A stretch of DNA of 63,904 nt, the filler included, from Caldilineae bacterium (GTDB lineage Bacteria > Chloroflexota > Anaerolineae > DTLA01): NCBI GenBank assembly GCA_037446815.1. It is 6 parts of 6 records of this genome, joined end to end, with 100 filler letters (N's around TTAATTAATTAA, not from the genome) between each part and the next. Parts side by side here need not be neighbours in the genome. Positions count along the whole stretch, not along the records: positions 12,311 to 24,484 come from JBBIHX010000080.1; 5 more parts are not named here. One strand, 5' to 3'. Shown one piece after another: positions 8,263 through 24,191 of the stretch. The translations under genes and the position numbers were made by a program. Under the pieces are notes generated by a model. The model ran no database searches. It was not told where the DNA came from and saw nothing but the letters and a program-made list of their open reading frames with translations. Positions within the stretch are counted from its first letter, which is position 1. Every line of letters starts with the position of its first letter.

Positions 8263-8940
8263 ATGCGCAGGGCTTTTGACGAGGACCTTCAGGACTTGCA
8301 GAACCAGATGCTGGAACTGGGCAGCATGGTGGGCGAGGCGTTGGCCCGTTCCGTGGACGCGCTCAAGCGCCAGGACATGGAGGCGGCGCGCGAGGTTATT
8401 CGGAACGATGTGAAGATCAACGAGAAGCGGTTCGCCATTGAGGCCGACTGCCTGCGGCTCATCGCGACGCAGCAGCCCATGGCGCGCGACCTGCGCTCCA
8501 TCGCCGCCGTGCTGGAAATCATCACCGACCTGGAGCGGTGCGCCGACTACGCGGCTGGTATCAGCAAGATCACCCTCATGATCGGCAAGGAGCCGTTCAT
8601 CAAGCCGCTGATTGACATCCCGCGGATGCTGGAAAAGGACCTGTCCATGCTGGACCGCGCCCTGAAGGCGTTCGTGGATCGGGATGTGGAAGCAGCGCGC
8701 GGCATCGCGGCAGAGGACGACGAGGTGGACGCGCTCTACGACCAGATCAACAACGAGTTGATATCGTTCATGCTCCAGGACCCGCGGACGGTCCGCCAGG
8801 CAACGCGCCTGCTGTGGGTCGCCCACAACCTGGAGCGCTTCGCCGACCGCGTTACCAACATCTGCGAGCGGGTGGTGTTCACCGTTACCGGCGAAATGCG
8901 CGAGATGAACATCCAAGAGCCCGAAGTGGAACCGCAGTAG
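8263..8940 (+). CDS. phoU: Phosphate signalling complex protein PhoU
   Basis: QQPMARDLR, DLERCADY, DDEVDALY, LERFADRVTNICE. Confidence 0.95.
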   Translation: MRRAFDEDLQDLQNQMLELGSMVGEALARSVDALKRQDMEAAREVIRNDVKINEKRFAIEADCLRLIATQQPMARDLRSIAAVLEIITDLERCADYAAGISKITLMIGKEPFIKPLIDIPRMLEKDLSMLDRALKAFVDRDVEAARGIAAEDDEVDALYDQINNELISFMLQDPRTVRQATRLLWVAHNLERFADRVTNICERVVFTVTGEMREMNIQEPEVEPQ

Positions 8941-8967
8941 CGGCGCGGTCGCGCACCGAGGGCCAAG

Positions 8968-10818
8968 ATGAAGCGCGCCATCGTCATCGCGGCGATTCTC
9001 GCCCTTGTGCTCGCAGTCGGAGCGCCGGGCGGTGCGCGGCCGCCTCTCCCCCAAATCCGCTGGGTGAACGGCGTGGAGGATCCGACCGCGGGCGTCCGCG
9101 AAGGCCCGCCCTCCCGCCCCTCGCCCGACGTTCCTCTGGCCGACGTGGAGGATGTGCCCGCGTTCTTCGGGCGCTATCCATCGTCGGCGGAGGTCCGCGC
9201 CTTCCTAGACGGCCTGGCCCAGGAGTATCCGGGCCTCGCTACGCTACAGACCGTGGGCACATCGTGGCGCGGGCAGCCCATCGTGGGCATCCGCCTGGGG
9301 AATGAGGCGATGGGCGACCCCGATGTCCGTCCCGCGCTCTACCTGGACGGCCAGCACCATGCCCGCGAACCCATCTCCGCCCTGTGCGTGCTGTACACGG
9401 TGTGGTGGCTGCTCGCGCAGTACGGCCATGACCCCCTCGCCACCCACCTGCTGGACACGCGCACGGTCTACGCCATCCCCTCGGTCAACCCCGACGGGAA
9501 CGATGTCTGGCTCGCCGACAACTTCTCTCAGCGACGGAATGCGAATCCCACATGCTGCGACGACGACGGCGACGGCCTGGTGGACGAGGACCCGCCCAAT
9601 GCCATCGGCTGGGGCACGTTCCACGCCTATCTCTACATCTTTGACCCCGCATGGCTCGCCGCGCACCCGGACAATCCCTTCGTGGACAACTGGCAGGCCC
9701 ACGTTACGGGCATCGCGGACATGGGATTCGTGGACGCCCAGGGGAACCCCATCCCGCAGGTGGATGATGACGGGGACAGTTCCCGCCACGGGACAAACGA
9801 AGACCCCATCGGCGGCGTGGACCTGAATCGCAACTACGACGTCCACTGGGGATTGGGCGACCCCAAGATGTGGAGCGATGTGTACCGCGGCCCCGCCGTG
9901 TGGTCCGAGCCGGAGGTGCAGGCCGTGCGCGACTGGGTGCGGGCGCACCCCAATGTCGGCGTGGCGGCAACGCTGCATTCGGGGGCCGACCTGCTGCTTC
10001 ACCCGTGGGGTTGGGCCATGGATGAACGCTTGCCCGACGGCCAGGTGTACGAGCACATCGGGCGCAAGGCGTCGCAACTGACCGAGTGCTGCGGGTTCCT
10101 GGGCGCGCCCCACACGTGGACCGCGCGCGGGTTGTACACGGTGAGCGGCAGCGCCATGGATTGGCTCTACCTGCAGGGCATCTACGCCTTCTCGCCCGAG
10201 GTGTACGCGGCAAGCAACATCGCCCGCGCGACGCCCTACACCGCGCCGGGGATTGCGAACGCATTCCTGGCCTACACCAGCACAGGCGTCATGTTCAACC
10301 CGCCGGAAGACGGCATTGTCCAGGTCTGCGAGCGGTGGCGGCGATTTCTCGTGTACCTGCTGGCCGCGCTGCCCGCGCCGGTTTTCAACGAGGTGGCGAC
10401 GGAGGGGGATAGCCTTGTGGTGCGCGTTGCCAACAACGGAGGAATCGCGGCGGCCCTCGCGCTTGAGGCCGAGACCGACGACGGCGTGCGCTACTCCGTG
10501 GAGGCGCCGGGGCTACGGGGCAGGCAATTCACATGGCAACTGCCCCTGGAGCCGCTCCTGGGCCACACGCTCACGTTGACCGCCACCGCGACGATGAGCG
10601 TCGCCGGCGGGCCGCACCCGCTGCCCCCCGCCACGTTGCGCGTGCGCGTGGGCGAAGGCGGCGCGGAAGTGCTGGGCGGCCTCGTGTCGCCGCTGGCGTC
10701 GCTGGCGGGGTTCTTCGGCGCGGAGGGGTGGGAAGCGGACCCGCGCCGCTGGGACGGGGAGTATCATCTGGGGCCGCCCATCGGGTACAGGTGGGCGTTT
10801 CCCGTGTTCGCCCGATGA
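8968..10818 (+). CDS. Secreted M14-family zinc carboxypeptidase
   Basis: Signal peptide; HHARE (HxxE), NPDG, RRN, GVDLNRNY, SEPE, TLHS, SPEV; DxDxDG-like acidic loops. Confidence 0.85.
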   Translation: MKRAIVIAAILALVLAVGAPGGARPPLPQIRWVNGVEDPTAGVREGPPSRPSPDVPLADVEDVPAFFGRYPSSAEVRAFLDGLAQEYPGLATLQTVGTSWRGQPIVGIRLGNEAMGDPDVRPALYLDGQHHAREPISALCVLYTVWWLLAQYGHDPLATHLLDTRTVYAIPSVNPDGNDVWLADNFSQRRNANPTCCDDDGDGLVDEDPPNAIGWGTFHAYLYIFDPAWLAAHPDNPFVDNWQAHVTGIADMGFVDAQGNPIPQVDDDGDSSRHGTNEDPIGGVDLNRNYDVHWGLGDPKMWSDVYRGPAVWSEPEVQAVRDWVRAHPNVGVAATLHSGADLLLHPWGWAMDERLPDGQVYEHIGRKASQLTECCGFLGAPHTWTARGLYTVSGSAMDWLYLQGIYAFSPEVYAASNIARATPYTAPGIANAFLAYTSTGVMFNPPEDGIVQVCERWRRFLVYLLAALPAPVFNEVATEGDSLVVRVANNGGIAAALALEAETDDGVRYSVEAPGLRGRQFTWQLPLEPLLGHTLTLTATATMSVAGGPHPLPPATLRVRVGEGGAEVLGGLVSPLASLAGFFGAEGWEADPRRWDGEYHLGPPIGYRWAFPVFAR

Positions 10819-14765: not shown

Positions 14766-14866
14766 AGCCTCCCTCCTTGCGGGTTTCTGACCGGGGCATA
14801 TGTGTGCAGGGCGATGGTGCAATACGTGTCTTCAAGAGTAGTGTAACGAGGCCGCAATTCGCCGTA

Positions 14867-14882
14867 TGTAACTTTTGTCGCA
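14867..14882. promoter_or_regulatory. Candidate Crp/Fnr-family operator
   Basis: TGTAAC-TTTT-GTCGCA imperfect palindrome with Crp geometry (TGTnA-N6-TCnCA), ~100 bp upstream of the oxidase operon. Confidence 0.4.
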
Positions 14883-15037
14883 AATGGCCAACGAATTCTC
14901 GACCACGGCACCGGCGGCCGATGCCGTGAACGCAGGGGCGCGAAGGGTCTCGGCGGTGAGACGCCTCGCAGGGCTTGGCGGCAGCGGGGCTTCTCACAGC
15001 ATATTGTGAGAATTCCTAACAAGGGCGCTGAAGGGTC

Positions 15038-15076
15038 TTGACTTTCTGCCCTACACGTACTATAATACACGTGTAG
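15038..15076 (+). promoter_or_regulatory. Sigma70 promoter with overlapping inverted repeat
   Basis: TTGACT-17-TATAAT (15038-15066); CTACACGT-N10-ACGTGTAG (15051-15076) brackets the -10 box. Confidence 0.75.
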
Positions 15077-15252
15077 AGATCCTTCAACCCTTGTGCCTCA
15101 TCTGGTCAACACTCATGGCACCTCGGCGACGCTCGGCGAGCGAAAGGAGGGTGCTGCGGCGTTTCATCCTGCGGTCATCATTCGCGCTCCGACAAGTCCC
15201 TAGGCCCTTGCGCCGTTGATTGCCGGGAGCGCCTTTGCAAGGAGTGAAAACA

Positions 15253-16407
15253 ATGAGACTTTGGCGTGATCCACAAAAGGCCCTCGTCATGGTCGCAGCG
15301 GGGATACTCCTGCTCCTCCTGGGCTGCGGCTTCACCGGCGATGGCACGTCGCAGCGCGCCACGCCCCAGCCCACAACGCCGCCGCTGGTGGTGGCCACCG
15401 CCACGCCCCTGCCCCAGCAGGACTACGAGGCGTTGGAACTGGAAGAGCGCCTGCTGGTCAACCTGTTCCAGCGGGTGGGCCCGTCGGTCGTGCACATCCA
15501 GGTAACGACGGCGACCGGCTCCGGTTCGGGTTCGGGCTTCTTCTACGATGCCGACGGCCACATCGTTACCAACAATCACGTCGTGGAGGATGCGGAGACC
15601 ATCCGCGTGGTGCTGGCCGACGGCACGACGGTGCCCGCCGAGGTGGTGGGGACCGATCCCGATGCCGACCTGGCGGTCATCGTGGTGGACGCGCCCGCGG
15701 CGCTCGTGGTGCCCGCCGAACTGGGCGATTCGGGCAAAGTCCAGGTGGGGCAATGGGCCATCGCCATCGGCAACCCGTTCGGGCTGGAACGCACGGTTAC
15801 TCGCGGCATCATCAGCGCCTTGGGGAGGGTTTTTCCCCAGGAGAGCGGGTTCTCCATCGCCAACCTGATTCAGACCGATGCCGCCATCAATCCGGGCAAC
15901 TCCGGCGGGCCGCTGCTGGACTTGCGGGGCCGCGTCATCGGGGTCAACACCATGATTATCTCGGAGACCGGCGCGTCGGCGGGCCTGGGGTTTGCCATTC
16001 CCGTGAACATCGTCAAGAAGGTGGTGCCCGCGCTCATCCGGGACGGCTTCTACGCGCACCCGTGGCTGGGCATCCGCGGGTACACCATCACGCCTGAACT
16101 GGTGGAGGCGCTGAGCCTGCCGGTGGACCGCGGCGCGCTGGTGGGCGAAGTAACATCCGGCGGCCCGGCCGCGAAGGCGGGGCTTCGCGGGGGGCGGCGC
16201 ACCGTGCGCATCCCGGGCTACGTGGAGCCGGTGCAGGCCGGCGGCGACATCATCGTGAGCATAGACGGCACCCGCGTAACCGGCATGGATTCGCTCATCA
16301 GTTACCTGGATTTCACCGAGGCCGGGCAAGTGGTGGTGCTGGACGTGATTCGCGGGACGGAGCGGCTGTCCATCCAGGTAACCCTGGGGCAGCGTCCGCG
16401 CGACTAA
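15253..16407 (+). CDS. htrA: HtrA/DegP-family serine protease with PDZ domain, lipoprotein
   Basis: LLLLGC lipobox-like; [27 protein letters not shown]; one PDZ domain. Confidence 0.9.
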
Positions 16408-16421
16408 TGGGGAGGCTTGGC

Positions 16422-16763
16422 GTGAGCGACAGTCCGTCGCCTCAGGAACCTTGCTACGTCATCAGCGTTGCAGCGAAAATGGTGGGCGTGCACCCTCAGA
16501 CGCTCCGCTACTACGAGAGCCTGGGGCTTATCAAGCCGTGCCGCTCGCCGGGGAACAGGCGGCTGTACTCGCCCAGCGACATTGAACGATTGCGGCAGAT
16601 TCAGCGTCTTACGGATGAACTAGGCGTCAACCTTGCGGGGGTGGAAACCATCCTCTCGCTTATGGACCAGGTAGCGCGGATGAAGGCAGAGATGGAGGCT
16701 CTGCAGAGGCGCTTTGAACGCGAGATCGCCCTGCTCAAGGGCAAGTCGCAGGGTAGCGAATAG
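16422..16763 (+). CDS. hspR: HspR-like MerR-family heat-shock regulator
   Basis: YVISVAAKMVGVHPQTLRYYE, GNRRLYS, ELGVNLAGVE; GTG after GGAGG (alternative ATG 16407). Confidence 0.85.
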   Translation: MSDSPSPQEPCYVISVAAKMVGVHPQTLRYYESLGLIKPCRSPGNRRLYSPSDIERLRQIQRLTDELGVNLAGVETILSLMDQVARMKAEMEALQRRFEREIALLKGKSQGSE

Positions 16764-16800
16764 GCGGATTGGAATCGGATCATGCAGACAGGAGGACGAA

Positions 16801-17892
16801 ATGTTTGACGAAAAGGATGTTCGTGAACTGGCTGCCTTCCATGCAGATGGAGCCGCGGTGTTGAGCCTGTACCTGAGCACAGATCCTTCCCGCCACATCA
16901 AGGACGAAACGAGATTGAACCTGAGAAGCATGCTGAAGCAAGCGGTGGCGCTGGGCGCGGCCCAGTCCGATGCAGACCGCATGGAGCGTTTCGTGGATTT
17001 GGAATACGACTGGCAAGCCAAAGGGCTGGCGATGTTCTCCTGCCAGGAGGGCGATTTCTGGCGCGCCTACCCGTTGAGCGTGCCCATCAGCAACCACGTC
17101 TTCGTGGCCGACCGGCCCTATGTGAAGCCGTTGAGCGACATCCTGGACGAGTACGGCAAGTTCGCCGTCGCTCTGATTGACCAAGAGGGGACCCGAATCG
17201 TTCTGTACCATTTGGGCGTTGTGGAGGACACGGCGGGCACATTCGGCGCCGAGTTGAAGCGGCACAAGCAGGGCGGCTGGGCGGCCCAGCGATTGCAGCG
17301 CCGCGAGGACGCCAAAGCCCACCAGAACCTCAAGGACGCCGTCGCGCTTGTCAAGGACTTCTGCAACAAGCATCAGTGCAAACGCCTCATCGTGGGCGGG
17401 CAGGACGAAACCGTGTCAAAGTTTCTGGCCATGCTGCCCAAAGCCCTCCGCGATAGCGTCATCGGCACCATGCCTATAGACATCACGGCGTCGGAGAGCG
17501 AGGCGTTGGAGCGGGCCCAGGACTTGCTGGAGCGGGCCGAGCGGGAGCGGGAGGCTTCCCTCGTGCAGCAGATGATCACAGCGGCGACCAAGGGCGGGCC
17601 GGGCGCCATCGGCCTGGCTGATACCCTGACCGCGCTGCAAGAGGAGCGCGTCCACGTCCTGCTCGTGGAGGAGGGGTTCCAGGCCACCGCGTACCGATGC
17701 GATCACTGTGGCTACATTGGGGCGCAGAAGACCAAAACGTGCGTATACTGCGGCGGGCCTATGGTTGCCGTCAAGGACGCCGTGGATGCCATCGTCCGCC
17801 GCGCCATTCAGCGAGGCGTAGAAGTGGAATTCGTGCAGGGGAACGACGATTTGAAACGCGCGGGGCAAATCGGCGCGATTCTTCGGTACTGA
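16801..17892 (+). CDS. Bacterial archaeo-eukaryotic release factor (aRF1/eRF1/Vms1-like, baeRF-type) protein
   Basis: LSLYL N-domain, RPYVKPL, HKQGGWAAQRLQR at the GGQ-loop position, CxxC..CxxC zinc ribbon, terminal IGAILRY. Confidence 0.8.
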   Translation: MFDEKDVRELAAFHADGAAVLSLYLSTDPSRHIKDETRLNLRSMLKQAVALGAAQSDADRMERFVDLEYDWQAKGLAMFSCQEGDFWRAYPLSVPISNHVFVADRPYVKPLSDILDEYGKFAVALIDQEGTRIVLYHLGVVEDTAGTFGAELKRHKQGGWAAQRLQRREDAKAHQNLKDAVALVKDFCNKHQCKRLIVGGQDETVSKFLAMLPKALRDSVIGTMPIDITASESEALERAQDLLERAEREREASLVQQMITAATKGGPGAIGLADTLTALQEERVHVLLVEEGFQATAYRCDHCGYIGAQKTKTCVYCGGPMVAVKDAVDAIVRRAIQRGVEVEFVQGNDDLKRAGQIGAILRY

Positions 17893-17934
17893 ACCTGCAC
17901 CTACGGCCGGTACACGCCGGCGAGGTGAGACTCT

Positions 17935-20412
17935 ATGATGCGATTTGATCGGTTTACAGAGCGCGCGCAGGATGCAGCCATGCGCGCCTACGAGATTCTG
18001 CAGCGCTACGGCCACACGCAGGTGGATACCGAGCACCTGCTCCTGGCGCTGATAGAGCAGCCAGGGGGCGTCATTCCGCAAATCCTGGACAAACTGGGCG
18101 TGGACGCCGACGCGCTGAAGCAGCGCCTGGAGGCCGCGTTGCGCGCCACGCCCCGCAGCGCGGGGTTCGGCAGCACCATGGCCGGCCAGATGTTCATCAC
18201 GCCGCGCCTCAAGCATGTGGTGGACACCGCCAACGAAGAAGCCAATCGCCTGAAGGATGACTACATCTCCACCGAGCACCTGTTCCTCGCCATTCTCGCC
18301 GAGCGGGGGGCGCCCGCCTCCCGCTTGCTGGAGGAGATGGGGGTTTCGCGGGATCGGGTCATGGAGGCCATTGAGCAGGTGCGGGGCGGGCAGCGCGTTA
18401 CATCCCCCCAGGCCGAGACCCGCTACCGGACGCTGGAGCGGTACACGCGCGACCTGACCCAACTGGCCCGCGAAGGCAAACTGGACCCCGTCATCGGCCG
18501 GGACAAGGAGATCATGCGGGTCATGCAGATCCTGTCGCGCCGCACCAAGAACAACCCCGTGCTCATCGGCGAGGCGGGCGTGGGCAAGACCGCCATCGTG
18601 GAGGGCCTGGCGCAGAAGATCGTGCAGGACGACGTGCCCGAAATCCTCATGGGCAAGCGCGTCCTCGCCCTGGACCTGGGCGCGATGGTGGCGGGCACGC
18701 GCTTCCGCGGCGAGTTTGAGGAGCGGCTGAAGACGGCCATAGAGGAGATTCAGCGCGCCCAGGGCGAGATCATCCTCTTCATTGACGAACTGCACACCGT
18801 GGTCGGGGCAGGGGCCGCCATGGGCGCCATGGACGCGTCCAACATGCTGAAACCTGCCCTGGCCAGGGGCGAACTCCAGTGCGTGGGCGCTACGACGCTG
18901 GATGAGTACCGCCGCTACATTGAGAAAGACGCCGCCCTGGAGCGCCGCTTCGCGCCGGTGTACGTGGACGAGCCGTCGGTGGAGGAGACCATCCAGATGC
19001 TGCGGGGCGTGCGCGACCGCTACGAGGCGCATCACAAGGTGCGCTTCTCCGACGAGGCCCTGGTCGCGGCGGCGCGCCTGTCCAAACGCTACGTAACCGA
19101 CCGTCACCTGCCCGACAAGGCCATTGACCTCATAGACGAGGCGGCATCCAAGTTGCGCATGGCGATTCACAGCATGCCCGCCGAACTCAAGGAGAAGCGC
19201 GCCGCCATCCACAAACTGGCGGCGGAAGAGGAAGCGGCCTGGCAGCGGCGGGACTACGAGAAGGCCGCCGTCCATCGCGCCGAACGCCTGCGGCTGGAAC
19301 AGGAGTTTAACGCGGCCCGCGAAGCCTGGCAGCGCGAGAAGAACATTGACGAAGTGGTGGACGTGCAGGACATCGCCGAGGTGGTGGCCACCTGGACCGG
19401 CATCCCCGTTACGGCGCTCCTGGAGACCGAGGCCGAGCGCCTCGTCCACATGGAGGAGCGCCTCCACGAGCGCATCGTGGGCCAGGATGAGGCCATCCGC
19501 GCCGTGTCCAACGCCATTCGGCGGGCGCGGTCCGGCCTGAAAGACCCCCGCCGCCCCATCGGCTCGTTCATCTTCCTCGGCTCGTCGGGCGTCGGCAAGA
19601 CTGAATTGGCCAAGGCGCTGGCCTGGTTCCTGTTTGACGACGAAGAGGCCCTCGTCCGCGTGGACATGAGCGAATACCGCGAGCGGCACACCGTCTCCCG
19701 CCTCATCGGCGCGCCGCCCGGCTATGTGGGCTACGAGGAGGGCGGACAACTGACCGAAGCCGTCCGCCGCAGGCCCTACCAGGTGGTGCTCTTTGACGAG
19801 ATAGAGAAGGCCCACCCCGAGGTCTGGAACGCCCTGCTGCAAATCCTGGAGGATGGCCGCTTGACCGATGGCCAGGGCCACACGGTGGACTTCCGCAATA
19901 CGGTGGTCATCATGACCTCCAACATCGGCACGCAGTACACGCGCAAGGGCGGCACCCTGGGCTTCCGCGCGGGCGATGCGCGGGACGCCGAGGAGCGCGC
20001 CGCGCATGAGGCCATTGAGCGCGGCCTGCGCGAGACCTTCCGCCCCGAGTTTCTGAACCGCGTGGACGAGATTATCATCTTCCACACCCTGACTCTGGAC
20101 CAGGTCAAGCAGATCGTTGACCTCCAAATGCGGGAGATCCGCGAGCGGCTGCGGGAGCAGGGCGTGGAGGTGGAACTGACCGAAGCTGCACGCGACTGGC
20201 TTGCGCGGGAGGGCTACGACCCCAACTTCGGCGCGCGCCCACTGCGCCGCGCGCTGCAGAAGCATGTGGAGAACGCCCTCGCCTTGCGCCTGCTGAGCGG
20301 CGAGTTCCATGAAGGCGATGTCATCATCGTGGACGCGGCGGACGCGGGCATCCGCTTCTACCGCAAGCAGAGCGTGGAACTGCCGTCCGATTCCGTCGCC
20401 GCGACTTCGTGA
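17935..20412 (+). CDS. clpC: ATP-dependent Clp protease ATPase subunit (ClpC/ClpB family)
   Basis: Clp N repeats, [14 protein letters not shown], short coiled-coil middle domain, [21 protein letters not shown] loop, GARPLRR. Confidence 0.85.
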
Positions 20413-20422
20413 GCGGGCGTGC

Positions 20423-21505
20423 ATGGCCGAGGGCGCGAACGACATCGTGCAACTGGACGGCTCCCACGGCGAGGGGGGAGGCCAAATTCTGCGCACGGCC
20501 CTGTCGCTGGCCGTGGCGCTGGGGCGACCCTTCCGCATCAGCAGGATTCGGGCAGGACGGGCCAAACCGGGCCTGCGCCCGCAGCATCTGGTTGCCGTGC
20601 GGGCCGCGGCGGCCATCTCCGGCGCGACGGTGGAGGGAGACCACATCGGCTCGCAGGACCTGCTGTTTGCGCCAGGGCACAAGCCCCGCGCGGGCGAATT
20701 CACCTTTGACGTGGGCGCGACGGAGGCCGGGGGAAGCGCCGGGGCCGTGTCGTTGGTGTTCCAGGCGCTCTTCCTGCCCCTTTCGCTGGCCGAGGGGGCG
20801 TGTCGCCTGACGCTGGTGGGCGGGACTCACGTTCCGTGGAGCCCGCCGTTCCACTACCTGGCGCACGTGTACCTGCCGGCGGTGGCCGCGCTGGGGTATG
20901 AGGCCGACCTGGCGCTGGAACGCTGGGGCTGGTACCCGAAGGGCGGCGGGGTTGTGCGGGCGGAGGTTCGGCCCCGCGCACGCAACGCCGCGCAGCCCGT
21001 GGACTGGACACGGCGAGGGCGCATCGTCCGCGTGTGGGGCATCAGCGCCGCGTCCAACCTGCCCGAACACATCGTCCAGCGGCAGAAGGCGCAGGCGGTG
21101 GAGACGCTGCGAAAGGCCGGCCTTCGCGCCGCGATAGAGGAGGTGGAAGGGCCGGCGGCGGGCTTCGGCACCGTGGTTTTCCTCGTCGCCCAGTACGAGC
21201 GCGGCATCGGCGGGTTCACAGCCTACGGGGCGCTGCGGAAACCGGCGGAGCGCGTCGCCGAGGAGGCTGCCCGCGACCTGGTGCGGTTTCACCAGACGAG
21301 GGCCGCTGTGGACGCGCACCTGGCCGACCAGTTGCTGTTGCCTGCGGTCATGGCTGGCGAAGACGTGGCGTTCACCACGCCGGAGGCCACCGAGCACCTG
21401 CGCGCCAACGCCTGGGTCATAGAGCAGTTTCTCGGCCCGCGGGTGGCGATTGAACCTCACGCGACCGGCGCGCTGGTTCGCGTGCGCGGCGCCGCGCGAG
21501 GCTAA
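20423..21505 (+). CDS. rtcA: RNA 3'-terminal phosphate cyclase
   Basis: DGSHGEGGGQILR, PGLRPQHL, GGTHVPWSPP, GWYPKGGG, VDAHLADQL, catalytic-position His in TEHLRAN. Confidence 0.93.
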   Translation: MAEGANDIVQLDGSHGEGGGQILRTALSLAVALGRPFRISRIRAGRAKPGLRPQHLVAVRAAAAISGATVEGDHIGSQDLLFAPGHKPRAGEFTFDVGATEAGGSAGAVSLVFQALFLPLSLAEGACRLTLVGGTHVPWSPPFHYLAHVYLPAVAALGYEADLALERWGWYPKGGGVVRAEVRPRARNAAQPVDWTRRGRIVRVWGISAASNLPEHIVQRQKAQAVETLRKAGLRAAIEEVEGPAAGFGTVVFLVAQYERGIGGFTAYGALRKPAERVAEEAARDLVRFHQTRAAVDAHLADQLLLPAVMAGEDVAFTTPEATEHLRANAWVIEQFLGPRVAIEPHATGALVRVRGAARG

Positions 21506-21845
21506 AGCCCCCGCGCCGAGGGTGTGGAGCATCCCCGGTTCCCTCGCCCGCTGGGAGAGGGTTAGGGTGAGGGGCGAGATTCTTCGCCCTGCGCCGCTCA
21601 GAATGACGGTTGTGGGGGCGTGGCGGCGCGGGGCTAAAGCCCCCGCGCTGAGGGTGTGGAGCACCCCCGGTTCCCTCGCCCGCCGGGCGGGAGAGGGTTA
21701 GGGTGCGGCCGCGCGGGGCTGAAGCCGCCGCGCTGAGGGTGTGGAGCAAATTGGCAATTTGCTCCACGGGCGCAGGGCCAAACCGCTGCGCTTGGCGGTT
21801 CCGCTGCTGTCATTCTGAGGCGCGAAGCGCCGAAGAATCTCACGT
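21500..21845. repeat. Cluster of REP-like units
   Basis: Three GGCTRAAGCCnCCGCGCYGAGGGTGTGGAGCA units, two CCCTCGCCCG..GGGAGAGGGTTAGGGTG units, two family-B half sites. Confidence 0.8.
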
Positions 21846-21931
21846 CGGCGGGCGCTCCTCACCCCGCGCCTGCGGCCTGGCAACGAGGGGGCGGGGTCGG
21901 CCGAGAGCACGAACACTCATACGGAGACGAC

Positions 21932-22897
21932 ATGTTTGAACTCATCTTCCTGGGAACGTCAGCGTCTGCGCCATCGCTCAAGCGGGGCCTCTCCTCGGCC
22001 ATGGTACTCCACAAGGAGTACCGCTTCCTGATAGACTGCGGCGAGGGCACCCAGCGGCAACTGCTCAAGAGCGGCCTGGGCTTCAAGCGCATGGATCGCA
22101 TCCTGATCACCCACGGGCATCTGGATCACATCCTCGGCCTGGGCGGGCTCATGTCCACCTTCGCCCGGTGGGAGTCCATAGACCGCGTGGAGATTCTGGG
22201 CGGGGCGTGGGCGCTGGAGCGGGTGCGCGCGCTGATGAACGTGGTCTTCGGCGAAGGCATCCCGCCCATTGACATCGTGTACACGGAACTTGAGCCCGGC
22301 ATCGTGCTGCAAGATGACTCCTTCGCGCTCATTGCCTTTCCCGTGCAGCACCGAGGGCCCGGGTGTTTCGGCTTCACATTCTACGAGAAGGAGAAGCGAC
22401 CGTTCCTGGTGGACCGCGCCGAGGCGCTGGGCGTTCCCGCAGGCCCGGAGCGGGCGCGGCTGGTGCGCGGCGAAGCGGTGCGCCTATCCGACGGGCGCAT
22501 CGTTACCCCCGACGACGTGTTGGGCGACCCCATCGGCGGGGCCAAACTGGTCTTCGTCGGCGACGCGGGCAGCACCGAGGGGCTGGCGAGCGTGGCCCGG
22601 CACGCCGACGCGCTGGTGATTGAGGCCACCTACACCGAGGAAGAGGCCGACATGGCGCGCAAGTTCGGCCACCTCACGGCGGCGCAGGCGGCGCGCCTGG
22701 CCGCGGAGGCCAACGTGCGCCTGCTCATCCTCACCCACATCTCGCGGCGCTACTCGGAGCGGCAGATACTGGACGAGGCCGCGCGCATCTTCCCCAACAC
22801 GGTTGTGGCCAACGACTTTGACGCGTTCCGCATCGTCAAGCGGGAGGTGCAAATCCGGTCGGGCGAGCCAGGAGCCGAAGCGCGCGCTACGGGCTGA
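21932..22897 (+). CDS. rnz: Ribonuclease Z (short form)
   Basis: FLGTSAS, DCGEGTQ, THGHLDH (HxHxDH), GP-rich exosite GVPAGP, EATY, GHLT, LTHISRRY. Confidence 0.93.
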   Translation: MFELIFLGTSASAPSLKRGLSSAMVLHKEYRFLIDCGEGTQRQLLKSGLGFKRMDRILITHGHLDHILGLGGLMSTFARWESIDRVEILGGAWALERVRALMNVVFGEGIPPIDIVYTELEPGIVLQDDSFALIAFPVQHRGPGCFGFTFYEKEKRPFLVDRAEALGVPAGPERARLVRGEAVRLSDGRIVTPDDVLGDPIGGAKLVFVGDAGSTEGLASVARHADALVIEATYTEEEADMARKFGHLTAAQAARLAAEANVRLLILTHISRRYSERQILDEAARIFPNTVVANDFDAFRIVKREVQIRSGEPGAEARATG

Positions 22898-24191
22898 CCC
22901 TGCGCCACACGAGCACGCCCAGCGCCGCCAGAATCAGCGCCGCCGATGAGCATATCGGCGTGGACGATGGTTCCTCCTGCGGGCGCGGGGTCGGCAGGAC
23001 AGGCGGCGTGGTGGGCGCGGGCGTGGGCTGCGGGGGCGCGCCGATGGCTTCCCGCCAGCGTGCGTCCAGTTCGTCAACCCCGAAGCCGTACACTTCCCGC
23101 AGCGCGTCCTCCTGGTACACGCCCTTCTTGAACGTGCGCAGGAGCAGGTCCATCTTGTCGGTGCCGTAGGTGTCTATGAGATACTTCACCACGGAGTAGC
23201 ACTCGCCGTAGAACAGGTCCACCTGCGTCGGGTCGCCGGTGTAGGCCGACAGCGACCGCACTGAGATGAGCGTGTTGGTGCGAATCGCGCGGTCCAGGTC
23301 TGCCTGATTCTCGCCGCGCAGGTCCCCCTCGGCGTACATGGCCAGGCCTTCGTCCAGCCACGTGGGCAGGCCGCCCAGCGGGTTGTCGGTGTACGCGCCG
23401 ATGACGATGTGGCTCAACTCGTGGGCGATGGTGCGGTCGGCGTCGGCGGCCGTGGACAGGATGACGATGGTATCCCCGCCCATGGCCATGCCCAGGGTGA
23501 TGGTGGCGATGTCGTACCCCTCGCTGCGCGACGAGATGGCGAGGCTCATGTCGGACTTGCTGCGGTACAGGAACACGCGGATGGGCTTCTGGAGTTCCAC
23601 GCCTGTGCCCGCCTGAAGCCGTTCCAGGGCTGCTTTCGCACCGGCCATGATCTTATCGGCCTCGCGTTGGCTGTCGCCGTACCAATGGAAGATGAGGTTG
23701 CCTTCCTGCTGCTGCTTCCAGTTGAAGCGATTGTCCGCGTAGGTTACGGTTGCCTGCTCCGTCTCCAGAACCCGCCCGTCGGCAAGTTCTGCCCGCCACC
23801 AGTATGTGATGACCCGGCCGGGAGGGATGTCGCCGGGCGTCAGTTCCCACGTCCACTCGGCGTTGATGCGCGTGCCCGTATCCTCCAGGTTGACGCGGTT
23901 GCGGGCGCGCTCGCCCTCCAGTTGGTAGAACAGGTGCAGCGCCTGCACGGGCGAATCCGTCTGCGCCTGGAGGGCGAAGGTGATGGCCGCGCCGAATTCC
24001 GCCCGGGCGCTGAGGCGGCTACCCGGCCACGGCTCCTGCGCCTGCGCCGTCGCTGCTAGGACGATGGCCAGGAGCAGAAGGGCGACGGCGAGGAGGCTAA
24101 CCCTTCCCGCCCTTGCCCACGGTGTCCAGCGAGACCTTTGTGATGTCCAGTCGCTCAGGGGGCGTGTCAATGTGCTTGTCTCCTTCATCAA
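22887..24191 (-). CDS. Secreted gluzincin (peptidase MA-like) metallopeptidase with C-terminal membrane anchor; start uncertain
   Basis: Signal-like hydrophobic stretch, HELSH...WLDEGLA, Pro/Thr linker, C-terminal Cys-TM-RR. Confidence 0.75.
   Translation of the reverse strand: MMKETSTLTRPLSDWTSQRSRWTPWARAGRVSLLAVALLLLAIVLAATAQAQEPWPGSRLSARAEFGAAITFALQAQTDSPVQALHLFYQLEGERARNRVNLEDTGTRINAEWTWELTPGDIPPGRVITYWWRAELADGRVLETEQATVTYADNRFNWKQQQEGNLIFHWYGDSQREADKIMAGAKAALERLQAGTGVELQKPIRVFLYRSKSDMSLAISSRSEGYDIATITLGMAMGGDTIVILSTAADADRTIAHELSHIVIGAYTDNPLGGLPTWLDEGLAMYAEGDLRGENQADLDRAIRTNTLISVRSLSAYTGDPTQVDLFYGECYSVVKYLIDTYGTDKMDLLLRTFKKGVYQEDALREVYGFGVDELDARWREAIGAPPQPTPAPTTPPVLPTPRPQEEPSSTPICSSAALILAALGVLVWRRVSP

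Follow-up and report, generated by a model that had tools for sequence, protein, structure and literature searches.

A Balon-like aeRF1 homologue beside ClpC in a predicted stress operon of a Caldilineae bacterium, and its genus-restricted junction with an rtcA-rnz pair

The DNA analysed here is a stretch of 63,904 nucleotides, filler included, from Caldilineae bacterium (assembly GCA_037446815.1); it consists of six parts joined end to end, and the whole stretch is called the window. Its subject is a string of six genes on the plus strand of the window, within the part taken from record JBBIHX010000080.1, which encode the protease HtrA, the heat-shock repressor HspR, a homologue of the archaeal and eukaryotic release factor 1 (aeRF1), the unfoldase ClpC, the RNA 3'-phosphate cyclase RtcA and RNase Z. 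An original prediction, made from the sequence alone, had proposed that these genes could form a bacterial pathway of ribosome-associated quality control (RQC) and tRNA recycling, analogous to that of eukaryotic Vms1/ANKZF1, Cdc48/p97 and ELAC1. The present study combined profile searches, structure prediction and surveys of gene neighbourhoods.

Results

Gene order and gene identities

As read from the window sequence, the order is promoter-htrA-hspR-aeRF1-like-clpC-rtcA, then 426 bp of repeats and rnz, spanning 15038-22897. The genes and the spacer are:

15253-16407, plus strand: htrA, a Do/HtrA-type secreted serine protease with PDZ domain (Pfam Trypsin_2, E 3e-37; PDZ_2, E 1e-11)
16422-16763, plus strand (alternative start ATG 16407): hspR, a MerR-family heat-shock repressor (NF047375)
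16801-17892, plus strand: the aeRF1-like gene, 363 aa, with the ribosome-binding site AGGAGG, a match to Pfam baeRF_family10 (E 8e-35) and a C-terminal zinc ribbon
17935-20412, plus strand: clpC, 825 aa, an Hsp100 unfoldase of class I that has a short M-domain and, at residue 675, an LGF loop for docking of ClpP
20423-21505, plus strand: rtcA, an RNA 3'-terminal phosphate cyclase (TIGR03399, NF003246; RtcA structure 4o89 in the PDB, E 2e-63)
21506-21931, no strand: a repeat-rich spacer in which a unit of about 70 nt is present in three direct copies, along with inverted 22-nt arms and a hairpin
21932-22897, plus strand: rnz, a short RNase Z (NF000801; HGHLDH at residues 61-66)

All six genes were thus confirmed in the predicted order and places on one strand. 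The intergenic gaps of 10-42 bp were confirmed as well, with 37 bp between hspR and the aeRF1-like gene, 42 bp between the latter and clpC and 10 bp between clpC and rtcA; htrA and hspR overlap by 1 nt or lie 14 nt apart, depending on the hspR start, and 426 bp separate rtcA from rnz. The start codon of htrA (ATG 15253) has AAGGAG 8 nt 5' of it, and the HtrA N-terminus has a hydrophobic stretch terminating in LLGC; the GTG of hspR at 16422 is preceded by GGGAGG. The only terminator-like site predicted on the plus strand of the string lies within htrA.

The identities assigned to HspR, RtcA and RNase Z stand above the cut-offs of their models. HspR scores 118.2 bits with the NCBIfam equivalog NF047375 (cut-off 105) and 34.9 bits with the CbpM model (cut-off 138). 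RtcA exceeds both of its equivalog cut-offs (TIGR03399, 366.7 versus 250.05 bits; NF003246, 368.7 versus 352). RNase Z exceeds that of NF000801 (269.1 versus 252 bits), lies just below that of TIGR02651 (276.4 bits, cut-off 292.95), and its HGHLDH fits the HxHxDH motif.

The Clp protein has two Clp_N repeats and two AAA+ modules. Its best solved match is B. subtilis ClpC, aligned in a single stretch (residues 2-804, 920 bits), while ClpB structures match in two stretches. In the alignment, its LGF (residue 675) stands opposite the VGF of the ClpP-docking loop of B. subtilis ClpC, and the M-domain comprises 96 aa, compared with 161 aa in ClpB-type neighbours, so that the ClpC call was borne out. 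A ClpB identity was considered and rejected: the TIGR03346 score (1148.4) is below the cut-off of 1232.1 and was reached in two stretches, the M-domain is short and the ClpP loop is present. The related genomes also carry a ClpB-like gene and an Hsp100 without M-domain, and thus the linked gene looks like the main ClpC of the organism.

Family, fold and motifs of the aeRF1-like protein

The aeRF1-like protein scored 120.6 bits with the Pfam model baeRF_family10 (PF18854), for which the gathering threshold is 27.1, followed by family 2 (42.2 bits) and acVLRF1 (37.5 bits), which places it in the aeRF1 superfamily, as originally predicted. It should be noted that in a control PF18854 also matched proteins in B. 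subtilis, Thermus and archaea, and the model is therefore not very specific. The NCBIfam matches, all of them sub-threshold, were to three Balon-type hibernation-factor families, to aRF1 and to acVLRF1, the last with 21.8 bits at a cut-off of 125. By these scores the protein is outside the Vms1/VLRF-1 clade, and in its predicted structure the full N-domain is present; according to Burroughs and Aravind 2019 (PMC6514570), acVLRF-1 is devoid of the N-terminal codon-binding domain. In each of five related genomes the gene is the sole member of the aeRF1 superfamily found.

A word-seeded homology search yielded 504 relatives at E <=1e-5; the best 120 of these are mostly 359-372 aa long, and their named sources are Anaerolineae, Caldilineae and unclassified Chloroflexi. 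A profile made from an alignment of 32 of the listed relatives (A1) was compared with the PDB. The best match was the Balon Msmeg1130 of M. smegmatis, with an E value of 4e-24 over residues 14-362; aRF1 and eRF1 followed at about 1e-16 and aligned only over residues 94-362, that is, with their middle and C domains. The AlphaFold (AF2) model (pLDDT 88.1, pTM 0.77) led to the same relatives: its top Foldseek match was ribosome-bound Balon (8v9l, TM 0.71), and in VIA-align six Balon entries reached Z scores of 27.1, 26.1, 21.4, 20.4, 20.2 and 20.1, with a root-mean-square deviation of about 5 A over 327-353 residues, compared with Z <=17.4 and a deviation of >10 A for eRF1/aRF1. Vms1/ANKZF1 was not among the Foldseek and VIA-align matches listed, which is no proof that the folds differ. 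When 1.84 billion representatives were searched exhaustively with a profile, 7663 proteins were obtained at E <=1e-3 and 1385 at <=1e-30.

Neither NIKS nor YxCxxxF is present in the sequence. In the N-domain, an SLYLxxDP element aligns with SLYFNADP of Msmeg1130. In the middle domain, profile alignment matches the loop KRHKQ-GG-W-AAQR to KHGRGGQS in eRF1 and to KGGQSAQR in aRF1, with the glycines in register, so that a tryptophan occupies the position of the GGQ glutamine. Both glycines (G158 and G159) and the four cysteines of the C-terminal zinc ribbon (CxxC...CxxC) are invariant in A1, in which conservation extends to the adjacent KRHK and to arginines further downstream; the C-terminus reads ...LRY, as in aRF1 4af1. 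In the window and the 80 loci described below, the loop tripeptide is GGW in 52 cases, GGI in two and GGF in one, and 26 proteins have a long insert; the residue before GG is glutamine in 49/81. A wider family set (the best 150 representatives minus 11 shorter than 330 aa, plus the window; n = 140) contains GGW 71 times, GGF six times and GGQ once, and the four-cysteine zinc ribbon is complete in 130. The GGQ at residues 199-201 of the window protein is coincidental, since relatives have GGT, SGT or AGT there.

PMC6514570 counts family 10 among the few baeRF-1 families that possibly are active hydrolases and refers to a 'well-conserved glutamine' of its catalytic loop, which may be the one at the GGQ position, where the window protein has tryptophan, or another one, such as that before GG in 49/81. 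Because the loop retains the glycines of release factors and not the glutamine, and the N-domain and overall shape are Balon-like while the zinc ribbon is of archaeal type, the proteins are regarded as a distinct 'GGW' branch. The Vms1-like assignment of the original prediction could not be upheld: the family 10 score is far above that of acVLRF1, the nearest solved relatives are Balons, and the GGQ glutamine is replaced.

Neighbourhoods of the aeRF1-like gene in relatives

Relatives of the aeRF1-like protein were confirmed in contigs from one genome per species at 244 loci, and the best 80 of these were used. Neighbours were called by profiles on stop-to-stop frames and were counted only where the contig leaves room. 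Three near-identical relatives (L001-L003, 87-88% identity) were included or left out, with the following results.

clp <=2 kb downstream on the same strand: 49/70 of all loci, 46/67 without L001-L003
clp <=500 bp downstream: 46/70 of all loci, 43/67 without L001-L003
dnaJ-type gene <=3 kb upstream: 45/60 of all loci, 45/57 without L001-L003
htrA <=3 kb upstream: 27/60 of all loci, 24/57 without L001-L003
hspR immediately upstream: 21/77 of all loci, 18/74 without L001-L003
any of dnaJ, htrA and hspR upstream: 57/60 of all loci, 54/57 without L001-L003

A Pfam check of cluster representatives confirmed dnaJ (DnaJ and DnaJ_C domains), htrA and hspR, and in many relatives a dnaJ-type gene lies immediately 5' of hspR. 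Among the clp neighbours, 50 are full-length. Of these, 45 belong to the ClpC type, with a 96-aa M-domain and an [LIM]GF loop, and five to the ClpB type, with a 161-aa M-domain and no loop. Gene order and strand persist even between lineages in which the aeRF1-like proteins share no more than 42-52% identity. In a quick maximum-likelihood tree (IQ-TREE, 80 proteins, midpoint root), adjacency to clpC is found on either side of the root, Caldilineales included, and requires 9 changes, compared with 24.2 after shuffling (0/500 shuffles were as low). This pattern fits an old pairing that was lost several times.

The region between the aeRF1-like gene and clpC is not always empty. A ClpB-type gene lies there in L011, L017, L018 and L027; the locus of the fifth ClpB-type neighbour, L005, is cut by the contig end. 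In L019 (11360-12307) and L049 the place is occupied by a 315-aa open reading frame (ORF) with Clp_N repeats and ClpB_D2-small and no AAA+ module, which may be a truncated Clp paralogue or the remnant of a pseudogene.

The survey was extended to 20 more distant Chloroflexota members of the family (179-304 bits), most of which keep GGW; only one has dnaJ-hspR upstream. At one of these 20 loci, L181, an RtcB gene (8336-9853, minus strand) lies about 2 kb from the aeRF1-like gene, a neighbourhood that echoes the one reported for some Balon genes.

Promoter, operator candidates and leader

The region upstream of htrA contains the following features.

15038-15066, plus strand: sigma-70-type promoter TTGACT-17-TATAAT, 11/12 consensus matches
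14991-15012, no strand: palindrome TTCTCACA-N6-TGTGAGAA just 5' of the -35 box, a candidate operator (perhaps of HspR)
15051-15076, no strand: perfect palindrome CTACACGT-N10-ACGTGTAG, spanning the -10 box; 1 match versus 0.02 expected
15073-15252 (start approximate), plus strand: htrA 5' leader of about 180 nt, conserved in the genus (alignments A2/A3)

The near-consensus promoter of the original prediction was thereby recovered. Two promoter-like sites, this one included, were found in 8.5 kb, compared with 0.7 +/- 0.8 in shuffled sequences, and both boxes are kept in an alignment (A2) of the window with L001-L003, its three closest relatives. The palindrome beside the -35 box has one match in the window versus 0.04 expected, and an equivalent TTCTTACA-N7-TGTAAGA (TTTTACA in L001) occupies the same position in L001-L003, so that the form in the genus is TTCTYACA-N6-7-TGTRAGA. 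By its sequence and position it is a candidate operator with HspR as a possible binder. A regulon-wide role of the motif was rejected, as G002 and G003 contain the exact pattern at this operon alone, and G001 and G052 lack it. The significance of the palindrome at the -10 box is doubtful because it is absent from L001-L003 and thus confined to the window. A search for an inverted repeat common to the operon upstream regions of 66 distant loci revealed nothing general, the best arm being present in four loci.

RNAalifold predicted that a 5' UUCUU of the leader pairs with the Shine-Dalgarno sequence AAGGAG in 4/4 sequences. As the comparison covers just four close sequences, the pairing is no more than a hint that the leader could be an RNA thermometer. 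Rfam gave two chance-level matches over 14800-23000 (E 0.33-0.34, below gathering) and none for the leader.

The rtcA-rnz pair and its spacer

RtcA was found in 100/200 sampled genomes of the class Anaerolineae, in 93 of them above the cut-off, and 83 rtcA loci were surveyed, G001-G003 and split or partial matches being left out. A gene for RNase Z lies directly downstream of rtcA on the same strand at 40/78 loci with room for it, and one or two genes further downstream in four more. With aligned starts, the median gap of the pairs is 3 bp; it is <=20 bp in 28/40 and negative in 18/40, and three of the 40 pairs have overlapping stop-to-stop frames. The caveat of the original prediction that rnz might be a chance neighbour of rtcA can therefore be dropped. 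In a phylum-wide sample RtcA was rarer (16/301), and the pair was seen only at two loci already known. In each of five related genomes, the linked rnz was the sole match to RNase Z over the full length; judged from these sequences, the rnz of the window is the main RNase Z copy of the organism.

In four loci (L081, L097, L103 and L108) a gene for a GAF-domain protein of about 370-420 aa directly follows rtcA. It is followed by rnz in L081, L097 and L103, and L108 ends before any rnz.

A gene for RtcB is adjacent to rtcA at 0/83 loci and is present elsewhere in all four related genomes searched (G001-G004), so that the earlier statement that no rtcB is present holds for the cluster only. In three of these genomes (G001:C39, G002:C62 and G003:C248) the RtcB match is in two pieces, which cover model positions 1-56 and 46-426 and are separated by about 1.5 kb. 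Both parts lie inside one open frame of about 1000 aa, which suggests an intein-bearing RtcB in the genus of the window.

The repeat cluster before rnz is as predicted. Direct copies of a unit of about 70 nt lie at 21486 (overlapping the rtcA stop), 21618 and 21703, and they are accompanied by inverted 22-nt arms at 21586-21607 and 21809-21830 and by a perfect hairpin. The unit has only these three matches in the 64-kb window, versus 0 expected. In relatives the rtcA-rnz spacer measures about 85-145 bp (L001, L003 and G052) or about 650 bp (L002), and the repeat cluster of 426 bp therefore looks like a local insertion or duplication within a pair that is older. By eye, longer look-alike ends can be recognised at 21576-21840 (GAGATTCTTCG...CTCAGAATGAC and GTCATTCTGAG...CGAAGAATCTC), which flank about 200 bp; the structure resembles a miniature inverted-repeat element and has no second copy in the window.

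The junction of the two modules

The htrA/dnaJ-hspR-aeRF1-like-clpC neighbourhood and the rtcA-rnz pair are called modules 1 and 2. They occur together at 4/80 of the surveyed aeRF1-like loci: L001-L003, which have the order of the window, and L064. A further genome with the string of the window, G052, belongs to the same genus as L001-L003. In L064, a member of a different deep clade, the pair lies upstream, in the order rtcA-GAF-rnz-97-aa ORF-htrA-htrA-aeRF1-like on one strand. Outside the genus, rtcA was downstream of the aeRF1-like gene at 0/50 loci with >=5 kb of downstream sequence, and rtcA or rnz was within 10 kb of it in 1/77 species (L064). As the window had been picked for this arrangement, L064 is the sole independent case, and with a rough chance expectation of about 0.2 cases among 77 it is not significant.

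The survey of neighbourhoods that the original prediction had called for therefore gave a divided answer. The pairing of the aeRF1-like gene with clpC is conserved (46/67 outside the genus), and rtcA and rnz are syntenic with it only in the genus and in one further species, which is the result that the prediction had itself named as speaking against it. As the two pairs travel separately, the four-step pathway is unsupported.

Discussion

With a probability of roughly 60%, the string consists of two conserved modules joined in one genus, and the first of them would supply a stress-induced A-site factor that is co-expressed with ClpC. The best reading of the RNA 3'-end module is that it was joined by chance or by lineage-specific co-regulation. 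Module 1 would, by its gene content, be a stress/proteostasis operon with a strong sigma-70 promoter and, in hspR, a repressor gene of its own, and the sequence and the predicted structure suggest that the aeRF1-like protein is a bacterial descendant of an archaeal release factor with Balon architecture. Upon heat or proteotoxic stress this protein would enter the ribosomal A site in a codon-independent manner, with its GGW loop positioned at the peptidyl-transferase centre. The ribosomes would then be silenced and protected as by Balon, which is the more likely outcome, or nascent chains would be freed, and in parallel ClpC (with ClpP), HtrA and DnaJ would remove damaged protein. In the separate, presumably translationally coupled module 2, RtcA would convert the 3'-phosphate of RNA (tRNA) into a 2',3'-cyclic phosphate, which RNase Z would then strip, like the short RNase Z of eukaryotes. 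We infer heat induction, ribosome binding, co-transcription and each of the enzymatic steps.

The reported precedent for the last step is that a short RNase Z removes the 2',3'-cyclic phosphate from ANKZF1-cleaved tRNA without CCA (10.1101/2021.08.05.455008 and PMC11897441). This precedent makes the step from RtcA to RNase Z the best-supported part of the earlier model, albeit as an independent module. The related genomes also encode long HPF and RqcH/NFACT, and thus neither hibernation nor RQC depends on the aeRF1-like gene alone.

The proposed A-site role draws mainly on the likeness to Balon (P. urativorans Balon, Msmeg1130 and Rv2629), which is the best match in both structure and sequence. 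Like the window protein, Balon has a three-domain aeRF1-like fold without NIKS, and the N-domain element SLY(L/F)NxDP is common to the window protein and Msmeg1130. Balon occupies the A site of vacant as well as translating ribosomes, together with EF-Tu. According to Helena-Bueno et al. 2024 (PMC10901736), Balon has lost both NIKS and GGQ, places an HP motif at the decoding centre and keeps the catalytic centre inert with a lasso loop; its genes typically lie in stress operons with Hsp20, DnaK, DnaJ, RaiA and RtcB, a stress/chaperone setting as in the window. There are also differences: the window protein keeps the invariant GG followed by W where Balon has the lasso loop, and its CxxC...CxxC zinc ribbon is intact, while in Balon-type families a beta-hairpin takes that place. 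The gene stands beside clpC and hspR; the main text of PMC10901736 contains no mention of ClpB or HspR, and ClpC was not looked up in it. With aRF1/eRF1 the window protein shares the middle and C domains, the GG register, the zinc-ribbon insert and the terminal ...LRY (aRF1 4af1), but it has neither NIKS nor YxCxxxF, tryptophan replaces glutamine, and its N-domain did not align in the profile search.

Several observations weigh against this reading. The NCBIfam hibernation-factor models for the MSMEG_1130, Rv2629 and AOC03_06830 families score only 92.5, 88.1 and 46.6 bits at cut-offs of 480, 320 and 330, and the invariant GG together with a true zinc ribbon, unlike in solved Balons, speaks for a function in the catalytic centre that is foreign to Balon. 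Heat induction and the operon structure are deduced from gene content, the short gaps and the lack of predicted terminators. The repressor gene is missing from most relatives' loci, conservation of the candidate palindrome is limited to the genus, and the operator CTTGAGT-N7-ACTCAAG, which we take to be the consensus of the HspR-associated inverted repeat (HAIR) of HspR regulons, has no match in the window with up to three mismatches allowed. Adjacency to clpC is missing at 21/70 close loci, and clp is absent within 5 kb at all 20 of the more distant ones; the adjacency may thus reflect shared regulation only. Given the 10-bp gap between clpC and rtcA and the second, independent arrangement in L064, the two modules may after all be functionally linked.

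The clpC losses just mentioned are also the basis for a more sceptical view, namely that the aeRF1-like gene merely resides within a heat-shock neighbourhood, by co-regulation or by chance, and has an unrelated role. The upstream partners are indeed variable (dnaJ 45/60, htrA 27/60, hspR 21/77). Such indifference between neighbours is, however, very hard to reconcile with an order and strand that persist down to 42-52% protein identity and with a chaperone, protease or repressor upstream in 57/60 loci. Hardly more credible is the single integrated pathway in which Vms1-like cutting or hydrolysis of peptidyl-tRNA would be followed by Cdc48-like extraction by ClpC and by restoration of the tRNA 3' end by RtcA and RNase Z. 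It would explain why four genes share one string with gaps of 10-42 bp and no predicted terminator, why that string recurs in four relatives (L001-L003 and G052), and why rtcA-GAF-rnz precedes htrA-htrA-aeRF1-like on one strand in L064; the activity of a short RNase Z on ANKZF1-cleaved tRNA would be its biochemical precedent. But outside the genus the modules are found apart (rtcA downstream at 0/50 loci, rtcA or rnz within 10 kb in 1/77 species), L064 does not exceed chance expectation, and the aeRF1-like protein is not of the VLRF-1 clade. Moreover, no loop residue beyond GG is invariant, the preceding glutamine being present in 49/81, and the related genomes encode RqcH/NFACT elsewhere. RqcH-based bacterial RQC releases its chains via Pth. 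The comparison with the Vms1/ANKZF1-Cdc48/p97-ELAC1-TRNT1 pathway is instructive in the same sense: the window string likewise pairs an aeRF1-superfamily protein with an AAA+ unfoldase and likewise has a short RNase Z and a cyclic-phosphate enzyme, but ClpC is a partner of ClpP and no Cdc48 homologue, the link to rtcA-rnz is restricted to one genus, and RtcA makes the cyclic phosphate and does not consume it. What was left of the integrated pathway after the synteny analysis is the RtcA-to-RNase Z step, which gained support.

A more serious, if still unlikely, alternative concerns the GGW protein itself, which could hydrolyse peptidyl-tRNA independently of the codon, or serve as a ClpC adaptor, and so free chains for ClpC-ClpP at heat-stalled ribosomes, RtcA and RNase Z being uninvolved. 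In its favour, G158 and G159 are invariant and in register with GGQ, KRHK and the downstream arginines are conserved, and family 10 was singled out as a possible active hydrolase in PMC6514570. Furthermore, the neighbour is a ClpC-type protein with ClpP loop and not a ClpB disaggregase, and the layout of repressor, middle gene and clpC recalls the operon ctsR-mcsA-mcsB-clpC of Firmicutes, the middle genes of which encode adaptors or modulators of ClpC. The tryptophan alone would not exclude activity: in bacterial release factors it is the backbone of the GGQ glutamine, and not its side chain, that does the chemistry. As this chemistry relies on main-chain groups, namely the backbone of the glycines and the amide of the glutamine, the protein could be a hydrolase, though we consider it doubtful. 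The glutamine is replaced nearly throughout (GGQ in 1/140), the whole fold and the N-domain match Balon, which keeps its catalytic centre inert, and a long loop insert is present in 26/81 close relatives, unlike in catalytically constrained release factors. Still less probable is a combined version, in which GGW proteins are stress-induced, codon-independent factors of the peptidyl-transferase centre that hand stalled chains to ClpC-ClpP, as hydrolases or ribosome-bound adaptors, and in which the long-sought physiological role of RtcA is to turn 3'-phosphate ends of tRNA into cyclic ones that RNase Z can remove, both being wired into one heat-shock transcript in the genus. If it were true, the GGW factor and ClpC-ClpP would be an independently arisen bacterial counterpart of Vms1-Cdc48.

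With regard to the favoured two-module reading, both modules have parallels in established operons. HspR regulons such as dnaK-grpE-dnaJ-hspR of actinomycetes and cbpA-hspR of Helicobacter, and likewise ctsR-mcsA-mcsB-clpC, resemble module 1 in having an autoregulated repressor gene within a chaperone/protease operon. The middle gene of the window encodes a homologue of a ribosome factor, and not a kinase or adaptor as in the ctsR operon. Module 2 may be compared with rtcBA of E. coli, an RNA repair operon under the control of RtcR: the window has an RtcA orthologue above the equivalog cut-offs, but in Anaerolineae rtcB is never adjacent, and the conserved partner is RNase Z.

The protein family as such is already known; it has been a Pfam family since 2019, and the Balon literature describes stress-operon contexts. 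The literature search found no paper on the GGW signature or on the arrangement of aeRF1-like gene and clpC, which may be included in the supplementary homologue and operon lists of PMC10901736, and no paper on the rtcA-rnz pair. It was not until 2024 that Balon-type factors were recognised, and little of their diversity has been explored. A GGW branch that is encoded between heat-shock regulators or chaperones and ClpC in Anaerolineae and Caldilineae would offer a testable link between A-site occupation and proteolysis. For RtcA, the occurrence of rtcA-rnz, and not of rtcB, at about half of the RtcA-bearing loci of Anaerolineae suggests a possible order of action on 3'-phosphate tRNA: first RtcA, then RNase Z, then the CCA-adding enzyme.

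Other features of the window

PADLOC gave only generic protease, helix-turn-helix and AAA+ domain matches, with no sign of a known defence system and no match for the aeRF1-like protein, RtcA or RNase Z, and no tRNA gene was found in the window. The remainder of the 64 kb is ordinary chromosome, with gatB, gdh, metK, mutL, transporters and two-component systems. A Peptidase_MA_2 gene (22887-24191, minus strand) is convergent with rnz, the ends of the two genes overlapping by 11 bp, and its position beside rnz is kept only in L001-L003.

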